From Promethearchaeota archaeon (GTDB lineage: Archaea > Asgardarchaeota > Lokiarchaeia > Sigyniarchaeales > SOKP01), in contig JABXKD010000027.1 in the NCBI GenBank assembly GCA_013375475.1, positions 1-42,569 of the forward strand: a stretch of DNA of 42,569 bases, in the 5' to 3' direction. A program made the translations under genes and the position numbers. The notes below the pieces were generated by a model. It saw nothing but the letters and a program-made list of their open reading frames with translations. It did no database searches and had not been told where the DNA came from. This document shows, one piece after another, positions 1 through 8,928 of this stretch (positions within the stretch are counted from its first letter, which is position 1; each line of letters opens with the position of its first letter).

Positions 1-1299
1 CCTCAACGTGATTCAGTTCCATATTACGGAATAGATGATGATGGAGCTTGGTGCAGCCATTGGTGGTGGGAAGGAGAGGATGATGGCCAACCAAAAAATA
101 CACCGCGTATGCATTGGAAAACAAATGTAAGCATGCCCGTCGATATGTCTGATTACGTTATTACATCGCTATCATTTAGTGCAATAATTAATGCAAGCGT
201 CGATCCAGACATTGATACTCCAAATGATGTATGGGCTAGACCAAGTGTATATATAAATCAATTCGAAACGTATGATTACGCTCAATTTTATGTCGAAGTA
301 ACTACTTTGGATATTGATGAGTTGAATACATACAGAATTGCTTTTAATCAAACGCGTTTGCTAGGTAACGAAAATCTTCTATTATATGATATAGAAGGAT
401 TCATTGGAGCTTTTGAAGAGCAAGCAATAATTGACGCCTTAAACAATGTTTTAGCAGTAGATCCTGGTCATAATAATTTTACTATTGTTTTAGGAATTTA
501 TATGTATTGTGAAGATAATAATTCTAACTTAGATCGCGATCATTGGGACGATATGCGCTTTAAATTTCTTAATTTAACATTTTCATATGAAAAAAAGATA
601 GATCAATTTACCTCTGGCTCATGGGCTCAAGATTTGGAAGAGATAAGTGGTTCTAATGTTCAAATTACTGATGCTAATCTTAATTTCGATTACAAAATCG
701 ATAAAAATTGGACAGAATCATCCCAAAATTCTCAAATTAGAATATATATTAATGAAAGAAAATTCGAACAGACAATAAGCTTAATAGAATATGATGATTC
801 AAGTGGTTTTCAAGAAGCGAGACCTGGAGGATACGATATTGAAGAAATATTGTTACCTTATGAAAACTTTACCCTTTCAATCCAAGTTTTTCTAGCTGAA
901 GATTTTGAATTAGATAATGACATAACTGTTTCTATAAAAAATGTTTATCTGTATGTGTCTTATACTGAAACTTTCCCAGATCCCATATCAGAAAATTGGT
1001 TATTTGTGGGTTTATTCATTATCGCAGTAATGGGGGCTACAGTGTTAGCTGCTTATCTAATTGCTTACCAGACATATTTGAAATATCCTGTTCCAGTAAG
1101 AAAGGTGAGAAAGTATAGAAAAACGTTATCTAGTGAAAAAACTCCTGGAGTTGGTATTGTTAGTCAAAAAGCTTCATTTAGTAAGGACTACAAAACTGAG
1201 TTAAAGAAAACGGACAAATTTTTAAAAGGTGCTCCAGTGAATGGAAAAGTAATGAGAAACAAGCTACTGGATAAAAAAGAAGGAGAATTACCAAAATAA
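1..1299 (+). CDS. Single-pass cell-surface protein, C-terminal part (5'-truncated by window edge), with conserved basic cytoplasmic tail
   Basis: Frame is open from base 1 (PQRDSVPYYGIDDDGAWCSHWWWEG...) into the ORF called at 109. Acidic beta-rich ectodomain with NxS/T sequons, TM helix (WLFVGLFIIAVMGATVLAAYLIAY), tail YPVPVRKVRKYRKTL. Confidence 0.8.
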   Translation, partial: PQRDSVPYYGIDDDGAWCSHWWWEGEDDGQPKNTPRMHWKTNVSMPVDMSDYVITSLSFSAIINASVDPDIDTPNDVWARPSVYINQFETYDYAQFYVEVTTLDIDELNTYRIAFNQTRLLGNENLLLYDIEGFIGAFEEQAIIDALNNVLAVDPGHNNFTIVLGIYMYCEDNNSNLDRDHWDDMRFKFLNLTFSYEKKIDQFTSGSWAQDLEEISGSNVQITDANLNFDYKIDKNWTESSQNSQIRIYINERKFEQTISLIEYDDSSGFQEARPGGYDIEEILLPYENFTLSIQVFLAEDFELDNDITVSIKNVYLYVSYTETFPDPISENWLFVGLFIIAVMGATVLAAYLIAYQTYLKYPVPVRKVRKYRKTLSSEKTPGVGIVSQKASFSKDYKTELKKTDKFLKGAPVNGKVMRNKLLDKKEGELPK

Positions 1300-1330
1300 T
1301 ATTTTTTTTAATTTCACATTATTTTTTATG
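1300..1330 (+). terminator. Putative archaeal oligo-T terminator
   Basis: T runs (TTTTTTTT, TTTTTT) immediately after the stop codon at 1299. Confidence 0.35.
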
Positions 1331-8200: not shown

Positions 8201-8928
8201 ACATTTTCAACACAAGTCTATTGGATATTGGAGTAAGATTAATTGCTATCTCTGCAGAAAAAGAAAATCATATGTTCCAATCAGAAGACCTTCGAATTGA
8301 AATTAGGCGTATTTTAACAAATGTTACAACTGAAGATGGTAGTTCAACACTAACTGCTAAACCAGGAGATAATGTGAGACTTAGAATCGTTTTACACGAT
8401 TTAGATTTTGGGGGACTTATTAAAGGCGCAGTTGTGTCTTATAGTGGCGATCTTGGGAACGGAATTCTTACAGATGGAGATAATAATGGCGTCTATGAGA
8501 TCGTTTTCGAAAATATAGCAGAAGGCACTTTTAAAATTAAGATAACTGCCTTTTATGGAGATAATTACGAATTTGAAAACTACGAAGTAACAATTAGCGC
8601 TATTAGACCCGCAGGAGAGGCATTATTGATCCTTATCTTAACAGTTGCTGCAATTTCTGCAACCTTGATAATAATGGGATACATTTATGCATATCAAAAA
8701 TACTTAAAATATCCAAAACCGGTTAGAAAAGTCCGAAAATACCAAAAAACACTCGAGAAAGCTAAAGATCCTAAAGTAAGTATAGAAAAAAGAGAAAAAG
8801 CTTTTAATGAGGCATATAAAGAAGAATTGGATAGATCATCTAAAATGTTAAAAGGAAAACCTGAAACACCTCCAGCTCTTAAACCAAAAATGGATGTGAA
8901 GAAACCGATTGAAAATCCTAAAAAGTAA
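5224..8928 (+). CDS. Large type-I membrane/surface glycoprotein (1234 aa), paralog of 1478-5227
   Basis: Collinear similarity (GIGAPWN.THWANRTDYDL, RNWNNGTF, PDGFWKFEA..PNYCE, SEISPGYY, VPFEQNFTIQ); ATGA overlap with upstream stop; TM + tail YPKPVRKVRKYQKTL. Confidence 0.8.
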   Translation: MRTTNQKKQNRLAVICLITVTLSVLSFLNIGLNSLNVIDNAYSQRSDLNPVNSLNAQDLSYDNTFSGIGAPWNLTHWANRTDYDLFVGFSEAGYDMVDIPLGSGWNGYKLSAEINDLTDNRNWNNGTFNYGAHDGSDISGENDTTWISNSFQNWTFGYNDTGYGVNPMSGNYLSNITLGDCLELRMDDDDTYIPPWSTYDPDDSCWWSSSIQIPRGKIIDSSLNFDLYPNHLAQFNSWAFSIYLNSKRVYSIGTYTLLQYGVNNWHSFSIPQTIWTNSSNIFPNEPLNNSILDISLVLECVGGGNFSGFVNDDYQRIYIDNVELNVEAEVLPSYVGLIMNQTAVGDIDWGKGIVEIEGNWETTNILTNFSSTDVGELGPYIMDLKTNLNLYGVKHTPDTNYETNVGSLGTVFSVENESSVNWETYGFIAIPTGYSESEMILNYPTDVILTNVFEPENPSTNILSLCDDSIPGRLSIPIDSISPNPDGFWKFEATSPNYCEELHIFNNATGSWVPNNSFLSGEYINITAKIRNSPEVSSYIQNTKAHLQIRYPNGSLWTERNQIASVDSNGDVKFNPFQIPSTPPEYEVGEYEVIITWNNSYSSFSLNETGVMVKKFQVTHYSNLIPDIEYYENIADGSILNLRVTFSDLENFDAIENANIYTYNFTHPTTIQYFSEISPGYYFFEFNVTGAPNAGNNTITVFANSPSYVSSEVNITIDIIKNTLLVVDNDYLDSVPFEQNFTIQFNYTEVYSGMGIVASNLSTNWAGESFFSMITQGVYTLTCNASGPGYQADKLYSMIITVEADRYQPQSIPIRVFITEKASFLELYINGTKKNEDDLVSIEFWQKINITVTFNDASSNHLSGASIKLTGGGLLEPLIEDSIREQYSFLLNASELGLGVDYLSILANLSNYNPQSIRFITEITERKTLLEVYLDGEDKTGDPSIDIAINKILNITIKYTDLNGNHIENATVEMFGAISDSLNEDSTYKQYSYIFNTSLLDIGVRLIAISAEKENHMFQSEDLRIEIRRILTNVTTEDGSSTLTAKPGDNVRLRIVLHDLDFGGLIKGAVVSYSGDLGNGILTDGDNNGVYEIVFENIAEGTFKIKITAFYGDNYEFENYEVTISAIRPAGEALLILILTVAAISATLIIMGYIYAYQKYLKYPKPVRKVRKYQKTLEKAKDPKVSIEKREKAFNEAYKEELDRSSKMLKGKPETPPALKPKMDVKKPIENPKK

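Follow-up and report, generated by a model that had tools for sequence, protein, structure and literature searches.

We analysed a stretch of 42,569 nucleotides from a Promethearchaeota archaeon (GenBank assembly GCA_013375475.1, contig JABXKD010000027.1; hereafter the window), at the start of which three tandem genes, P0001 to P0003, encode surface proteins that end in the same conserved tail of 57 residues. With a probability that we put at roughly 0.55, modelling suggests that this tail is a docking motif for U417, a protein of about 417 residues encoded next to such genes in related genomes. Under this reading, a transmembrane (TM) segment and the tail would form the constant module of a surface-protein cassette occupying one genomic slot, in which the ectodomains are shuffled, duplicated and fused; the conserved proline, arginine, aliphatic and aromatic positions of the tail would wrap onto the C-terminal, winged-helix-like half of U417 and leave its longin domain free, probably together with the adjacent U729, the likely third component. 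A common tail docking on U417 would couple many different ectodomains to one intracellular adaptor, and the predicted docking addresses the link between the Asgard cell surface and the eukaryote-like cell interior. In the available part of one report, cultured Lokiarchaeia are described as having no S-layer, many "complex surface proteins" and a single membrane with an actin cytoskeleton beneath it (PMC9834061); the available parts of two others describe Asgard genomes as rich in longin/roadblock domains and small GTPases, with partners unknown and gene neighbourhoods rarely informative (PMC10933270; bioRxiv 10.1101/2020.10.19.343400), and the first of these two presents longin/roadblock dimers as small-GTPase platforms in eukaryotes and Myxococcus (PMC10933270).

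The shared tail and the proteins that carry it

All three genes lie on the plus strand. P0001 (1-1299), whose 5' end is truncated by the contig start, is represented by its 3' part, with 432 residues visible: a head A ectodomain, one TM segment (approximately 991-1065, with a hydrophobic 19-mer at residues 331-349) and the conserved tail (1066-1236), after which 20 less conserved residues run up to the stop at 1299; it belongs to a short class of about 545 residues, its orthologs in related genomes measuring 540-575. P0002 (1478-5227) is a type-I surface protein of 1249 residues with an N-terminal hydrophobic anchor, a head B (residues ~1-800), a stalk C (~803-1135, with weak PKD/Big_1 matches), a TM segment (approximately 4877-4960; 19-mer at residues 1134-1152) and the tail (4961-5131). 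P0003 (5224-8928), whose start overlaps the P0002 stop, is a 1234-residue paralog of P0002 with 48% identity and the same architecture (TM segment approximately 8599-8691, 19-mer at residues 1126-1144; tail 8692-8862). The three TM segments align with those of the family, and the tails are delimited by a tail alignment and a tail profile, which within the genome recovers its own three tails at E 4e-32 to 1e-31, a similarity that greatly exceeds chance. A preliminary description of this DNA had proposed a cytoplasmic tail motif shared by the three proteins, and an ungapped alignment of 57 columns, 26 of them invariant, reproduces that motif position for position; the start positions given there were correct, whereas the ends had been extended to the stop codons, past the conserved ends at 1236, 5131 and 8862.

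Each tail directly follows the sole C-terminal hydrophobic segment of its protein, and in both P0002 and P0003 a single hydrophobic anchor at the N-terminus is paired with a single C-terminal TM segment. N-x-S/T sequons number 33 in the P0002 ectodomain (18.4±3.7 in shuffles), 35 in that of P0003 (18.3±3.6) and 8 in that of P0001 (3.2±1.6), with 0-1 in the tails; the latter, 77-88 residues long up to the stop, hold 21-28 lysines and arginines versus 7-11 aspartates and glutamates. These features of the sequences fit an N-out, C-in topology with a cytoplasmic tail, given the positive-inside rule and archaeal N-glycosylation.

In agreement with the earlier statement that the P0001 ectodomain does not align with the other two, BLASTP of P0001 against P0002 and P0003 matched only TM segment and tail (E 8e-21 and 1e-23). 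By hhalign, heads A and B have a 30-residue signal region alone in common, and each remotely matches stalk C (~95% probability, 14-18% identity), head A matching the P0002/P0003 stalk at 95% probability and 14% identity. The independent conservation claimed for the tail was open to the objection that it might occur only on full-length paralogs of one family and be conserved no better than their ectodomains. Between P0002 and P0003, judged from their sequences, tail conservation is indeed unexceptional (56% identity versus 47% overall, with 25% of equal-length ectodomain windows scoring as high), but independent conservation is supported by the presence of the tail on ectodomains that share no BLAST match. 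The profile search from the three tails that had been proposed as a check returned 172 proteins at E≤1e-3 among 1.84 billion representative proteins (80 at E≤1e-10 and 7 at E≤1e-30), and our analysis of the family covers 150 listed matches of the 172. Among the 150 tail matches with at least 19 upstream residues, 147 have a 19-residue window of mean hydropathy at least 1.7 directly before the tail, and in most of the listed matches the tail lies 0-77 residues from the C-terminus. With TM segment and tail removed, 121 ectodomain segments sort into the modules head A, head B and stalk C, where head A is of the P0001 type, is common to 64 other segments and makes up the entire ectodomain of proteins of about 550 residues. 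The same TM segment and tail occur on head A alone, on A+C, on B+C and on fused doubles. Across 3634 pairs with alignable ectodomains the tail exceeds ectodomain conservation in 82% (mean 0.44 versus 0.36), and tail identity is still 0.42 in 1476 pairs lacking an ectodomain BLAST match, a figure that has a floor because the matches were selected by tail.

In 13 of the 150 listed proteins there are two tails, about 550 residues apart, with a basic linker and then a further hydrophobic segment after the first. These proteins are natural fusions in which two surface-protein units of about 550 residues are joined with a consistent topology, and their double frames are single open frames in several genomes. 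In examples such as L017:12038-15400, L021:12082-15423 and L022:12853-16206 the order is ectodomain, TM, tail, TM, ectodomain, TM, tail, which places the first tail on a cytoplasmic loop between two TM segments.

The full 57-residue profile is matched in 32 of 41 relatives (22/24 of the same genus, 8/11 of family f2, 0/4 of family f4), and a broader profile of the TM end and juxtamembrane core in 138 of 151 genomes of the class, which come from 27 of 29 genera and from each of the seven sampled families. This deep core consists of the tyrosine at the membrane boundary followed by [YF]-P-x2-[VI]-R-x-[VIL]-[RK]; the second half of the tail, up to K-x-L-K-G-x-P, is particular to the family of the window. 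Neither Pfam nor NCBIfam has a model covering the tail when P0001-P0003 and TM plus tail alone are scanned, no NCBIfam sorting-domain match appears at E≤1 or E≤0.1, and a PDB search with the tail gave nothing meaningful. The annotation sources checked give no functional name for the tail, U417 or U729, and our literature search turned up no account of the tail or of surface-protein genes neighbouring longin genes, the supplementary asCOG and eukaryotic signature protein (ESP) tables, which might list U417 or U729, lying outside that search. The tail is thus uncharacterised, as had been supposed, and by its sequence is a rare family without known relative, for which the TM-plus-tail profile provides a sequence handle to catalogue a class of Asgard surface proteins. 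The likeness to archaeal sorting domains is that PGF-CTERM/archaeosortase systems also place a conserved C-terminal TM segment and basic module on otherwise unrelated surface proteins. PGF-CTERM-type systems, however, carry their signature motif before the TM helix and only few basic residues after it, whereas here the 57 conserved residues follow the helix, are predicted to be cytoplasmic and belong to tails of 77-88 residues; the tail lacks the features of archaeal C-terminal sorting domains for which we tested it.

Contigs from RNA libraries (4 runs from 2 studies) align with at least 95% identity to parts of 3326-8525 and of 10396-10900, among them 4928-5328, which spans the P0002 tail and the P0002/P0003 junction; this coverage does not show transcription, because DNA carry-over is possible and there is no silent control stretch.

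Gene neighbourhood and the modelled complex

In a collection with one genome per species we located 74 loci, hosted by metagenome-assembled genomes of Promethearchaeota/Promethearchaeia with few other Asgard labels and one bacterial label, and their gene order is one syntenic arrangement. On the minus strand, three housekeeping genes are followed by U729 (~730 residues) and U417 (~417 residues); on the plus strand after U417 come 1-5 tail-bearing genes, variable in number and type, and in a subset of loci a trio of plus-strand genes homologous to those at 9019, 10095 and 11386 of the window. The far side of the cassette is formed by a convergent GNAT acetyltransferase gene and by genes for an enoyl-CoA hydratase (ECH) and a hydroxyacyl-CoA dehydrogenase (HCDH). 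U417 is the immediate divergent upstream open reading frame (ORF) in 43 of 44 tail-anchored loci with at least 1.7 kb of flank, the sole exception having a 166-residue ORF inserted, and U729 and U417 are both upstream in 30 of 32 loci with at least 4.2 kb; the median distance between U417 and the cassette is 283 nt (range 122-592). It is thus these two upstream genes, and not those downstream, that are the constant companions of the cassette. The bacterial label belongs to L068, a record assigned to Nanopelagicaceae in which all elements of the cassette surroundings are present (tail gene, trio, GNAT, ECH, HCDH) and which is probably a mis-binned Asgard contig.

In the genome of the window itself, contig C239 ends with U729, U417 and then the 5' part of a gene of the short tail class. 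In the closest relative the cassette comprises 3 short and 2 long genes, and its first gene shares 83% identity with this fragment. The cassette locus therefore extends beyond the start of the window, with an assembly gap in between. A second contig of the same genome, C232, carries two surface proteins with divergent tails, which keep the core and differ in the second half; after these genes, in the same orientation, come a U417 paralog (32% identity) and a U729 paralog (29%). This order recurs in two further genomes, and coordinates suggest several more; in two genomes of family f2, U417, U729 and two tail genes follow each other on one strand. The ORFs after the C232 tail genes had also been considered as homologs of the window genes at 9019 and 10095, which BLASTP ruled out. 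Of 151 genomes of the class, 149 have members of the U417 family, as a rule several each, and more distant U729-like genes on contigs C55, C242 and C228 of the same genome have no tail-bearing neighbours. At L086, one contig has two nearby U729-U417 pairs with ORFs of about 545 residues between them that lack a tail-profile match and may be a further diverged module.

The C239 copy of U417 has 421 residues and no predicted TM segment, and between species with widely diverged surface proteins U417 retains 73-91% identity. Its confident model (pLDDT 86, pTM 0.76) contains a beta-beta-alpha-beta-beta-beta-alpha domain, a helical hairpin and two winged-helix-like modules, in that order. Residues 1-167, the part covered by our VIA-align search, form a longin domain, with Z 12.4 to FNIP2/FLCN (6nzd_H; 143 aligned, rmsd 3.4), 12.2 to Lst4 (4zy8_C), 11.6 to a Lokiarchaeota Roadblock-Longin protein (8yqg_B), 11.3 to GATOR1 (8fw5_B), 11.0 to C9orf72-SMCR8 and 9-10 to AP sigma, TRAPP and Mon1-Ccz1; GATOR1 chains align to residues 1-165 of the model only. 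Foldseek with the full-length model found no match at E≤1e-3, its weak rows including MarR-type regulators. U729, 740 residues long on C239, combines a region resembling a helix-turn-helix (HTH) with a long helical coiled-coil region of about 300 residues. Three of three homologs scanned have a sub-threshold match to the TrmB HTH PF01978 (17.6-21.3 bits versus a cut-off of 25.6; E 2.5e-4 to 3.6e-3), the own-genome U729 has none at E≤0.01, and a match of U729 to the PDB TrmB entry 3qph has E 0.015; U729 falls in unnamed Promethearchaeota clusters, one neighbouring cluster being annotated TrmB on 33%.

The complex was predicted for own-genome U417 (36-row alignment) with the cytoplasmic tail of P0003, taken as residues 27-106 of alignment A2 (29 rows). 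The runs gave ipSAE values of 0.81, 0.82 and 0.81, with none of the 3 controls exceeding 0.00; they agreed in at least 90% of contacts and had a partner pLDDT of 65-67. Among solved complexes 58 of 80 reach this ipSAE mark, among mismatched pairs 2 of 110, counts that hold roughly because custom alignments were supplied. Tail contacts fall at A2 positions 36, 38-39, 41-43, 45-46, 49-50, 54-55, 57, 59-63, 65-67, 69-70, 73-74, 76-77 and 80-81, a span (A2 36-81) equivalent to P0003 residues 1164-1209, and include the conserved P36, V39, V42, R43, Y45, L49, P55, I59, F66, Y70, E73, L74 and L81. On U417 the contacts (residues 189, 252-292, 370-387 and 401-416) lie outside the longin domain, in the C-terminal winged-helix-like half. 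The docking role that had been put forward among other functions is thus supported, at the level of prediction, by the conserved neighbourhood and the complex prediction together. The suggestion that invariant tyrosines of the tail could be regulatory is not supported, as only the first, at the membrane boundary, is invariant (142/142); Y35 is exchanged for phenylalanine in 27 of 142 copies and Y45 in 42 of 142, and Y32 is mostly valine or isoleucine. Replacement of the non-boundary tyrosines by phenylalanine or aliphatic residues is as expected for hydrophobic contacts.

Possible roles of the tail and competing explanations

We infer both the binding of tail and U417 in the cell and its consequence, for which the candidates are a GTPase platform, the trafficking or clustering of surface proteins, and membrane sequestration of a DNA-binding regulator. 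GTPase-linked signalling or trafficking would be the most attractive role, because longin/roadblock dimers serve small GTPases elsewhere, and the HTH- and winged-helix-like parts leave room for a membrane-held regulator or a purely regulatory adjacency. Several observations weigh against docking on U417. The model supports binding, but the binding itself is predicted, and the prediction covers the single pair of U417 and the P0003 tail; conservation at the U417 interface is 0.850 versus 0.857 in the rest of the C-terminal half, a value reached by 5890 of 10000 random sets. Adjacency within the 74 loci is not independent evidence, because most of them are one orthologous region in related genomes and their housekeeping flanks are conserved too; here the C232-type and family f2 arrangements, which keep the adjacency in another gene order, speak for docking. 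The U417 family is also broader than the tail, with several copies per genome, and two U417 loci of family f4 have no tail gene within their short flanks. Finally, a U417/U729 pair with HTH- and winged-helix-like parts, divergent to the cassette, presents the classic layout of regulator and target.

Such a layout would be accounted for if U417 and U729 were transcription regulators of the cassette and the tail bound something else or nothing, which we regard as quite unlikely. The intergenic region of median 283 nt, the sub-threshold TrmB HTH in 3/3 U729 homologs, the 3qph match at E 0.015 and the MarR-type regulators in the weak Foldseek rows of U417 are consistent with regulation; yet all HTH matches lie under curated cut-offs and none is found in own-genome U729 at E≤0.01, the genes are co-directional at the C232-type locus and in family f2, a longin domain and a 300-residue coiled coil would be unusual for a simple repressor, and the predicted position of the tail is the winged-helix-like half of U417 itself. 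A hybrid, in which the tail sequesters the regulator at the membrane, overlaps with docking on U417. Alternatively, one could imagine a tail without any dedicated partner, a polybasic anchor and possibly an amphipathic helix that fixes topology by the positive-inside rule, binds acidic archaeal lipids and is conserved through common descent of the cassette genes by recent duplication and recombination. We consider this improbable. The invariant or near-invariant positions go beyond charges, with Pro, Leu, Ile, Phe, Tyr/Phe, Glu and Gly-x-Pro regularly placed along 57 residues in 29 to 142 diverged copies, and the juxtamembrane core is kept in 27 of the 29 genera; a complex score of 0.81 versus 0.00 is also more than one would expect of a generic basic patch. 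The partnerless anchor gains from the very basic composition of the tail (K+R 21-28 of 77-88 residues), from the modest excess of the P0002/P0003 tail over the ectodomain (56% versus 47%) and from the cassette genes being tandem paralogs that plainly exchange modules.

Docking onto the downstream trio, by which surface proteins would be linked to the actin cytoskeleton, appears very unlikely: 30 of 55 classifiable loci have no trio and their 63 tails keep the full-length consensus, and the C232-type locus and the family f2 loci are without it as well. Set against this, the trio lies 3' of the last tail gene on the same strand with gaps of 109-700 nt (in 15 of 41 loci with at least 3.5 kb of room), its first protein has a gelsolin-type fold closest to the actin-binding Asgard ProGel, and the strict tail end K-x-L-K-G-x-P occurs in 36 of 69 tails of trio-plus loci versus 5 of 63 of trio-minus loci, a difference confounded by phylogeny. 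The tails of the 30 trio-minus loci likewise rule out the trio as keeper of tail conservation. To a sorting or processing signal, or an element for homo- or hetero-oligomerisation among the cassette proteins, we assign the lowest probability. Several tail proteins are co-encoded and could assemble, and 13 of the 150 listed proteins are fused doubles, but for sorting there is no NCBIfam or Pfam sorting-domain match, and the motif comes after the TM segment, on the predicted cytoplasmic side, and is at least 57 residues long.

Going beyond docking on U417, it is conceivable, though we think it doubtful, that tail, U417 and U729 constitute an archaeal receptor-adaptor system, in which hypervariable, adhesin-like ectodomains are connected via the docking peptide and a longin-domain platform to small-GTPase signalling or trafficking and, in one subclade, also via a gelsolin-fold protein to Lokiactin; if true, this would be a prokaryotic counterpart, and possibly a forerunner, of eukaryotic receptor/cargo-adaptor coupling. 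Eukaryotic parallels are the integrin beta tails with talin and kindlin, and the AP complexes, whose sigma and mu subunits have longin-type domains. By analogy, the system may work like such receptor-tail/adaptor pairs, with a single TM helix between variable ectodomains and a conserved short cytoplasmic peptide that is here predicted to dock on a soluble adaptor, and it is a member of no family tested. The structural neighbours of the U417 N-domain include AP sigma subunits and further longin proteins; however, there is no sequence homology to the eukaryotic tails, and the tail is predicted to touch the winged-helix-like half of U417 rather than its longin domain. The likeness to longin GTPase platforms (FLCN-FNIP, GATOR1 NPRL2/3, Mon1-Ccz1, C9orf72-SMCR8) and to the Asgard "NPRL2-like longin" families is that the U417 N-domain superposes on them with Z 9.4-12.4, and the available part of one source describes in NPRL2 a longin domain followed by further small domains, as in U417 (bioRxiv 10.1101/2020.10.19.343400). 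The match to these platforms is nevertheless confined to the longin domain, to which that search was directed, and the conserved cassette neighbourhood contains no GTPase gene.

The downstream trio and other genes of the window

The trio, all on the plus strand, accompanies the cassette in a subclade only: it is present in 25 of the 74 loci, absent in 30, where the tail gene abuts the GNAT gene, and undecidable in 19, and it was found in 10 of 10 same-genus loci examined. Its first gene (9019-10098; model pLDDT 83) encodes a protein whose N-terminal domain (residues ~10-99) has a gelsolin fold and whose remainder consists of long helical hairpins. The top Foldseek match is Thorarchaeota ProGel in an actin-bound structure (7c2f_B; E 7.8e-4, TM-score 0.72 on the target), with further matches to the Sec23 gelsolin-like domain and to gelsolin G2 and villin D6 (TM-scores 0.55-0.63); no Pfam gelsolin model reaches its gathering score, with sub-threshold DUF7904 in 3 of 11 orthologs and MPK1_gelsolin_C in 1 of 11. 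The protein thus shares its N-terminal fold with the Asgard gelsolins (ProGel, 2DGel) and differs from them in falling under the Pfam gelsolin threshold, in being fused to a helical region of about 250 residues and in adjoining surface-protein genes. The second gene (10095-11237) is a paralog of the helical part of the first (hhalign 99.5%, A3 114-350 versus A4 15-253), for which Pfam yields weak TPR matches only; a gelsolin domain in it can be ruled out, as the paralogy is limited to the helical part. The third (11386-11832) encodes a conserved protein of 148 residues (family alignment A5) with no family match in Pfam and no PDB profile match; a longin/roadblock-like nature, which we considered for it, is without Pfam or PDB support and has an hhalign probability of 1.5% against the U417 longin domain. 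At L083 and L091 the trio is rearranged, with the 148-residue gene first, and the two helical proteins, at 775 and 695 residues, have roughly double the length.

Elsewhere in the window, a minus-strand gene at 38913-41237 encodes another surface protein, of 774 residues, with an N-terminal anchor, a TM segment near residue 550 and a cytoplasmic domain of about 200 residues that has no Pfam and no PDB sequence match and looks roadblock-like by eye, an impression without further support. It lies near a Ras-family GTPase gene (36695-37246), and its homolog at L024 is likewise beside a similar GTPase gene. The Ras-family gene of the window is one of three small-GTPase genes within 10 kb, at 27667-28575 (minus), 30393-30962 (plus) and 36695-37246 (minus). 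The latter two were recognised as GTPases by reading only; the first has an N-terminal extension of about 125 residues before an Arf/Roc/Ras-type domain (Pfam Arf, E 1.4e-16). At 16319-17822, on the minus strand, three tandem paralogs of about 161-165 residues, syntenic in related genomes, share a C-x5-R-[ST] motif near the N-terminus, which presumably recalls low-molecular-weight phosphotyrosine phosphatases or ArsC.

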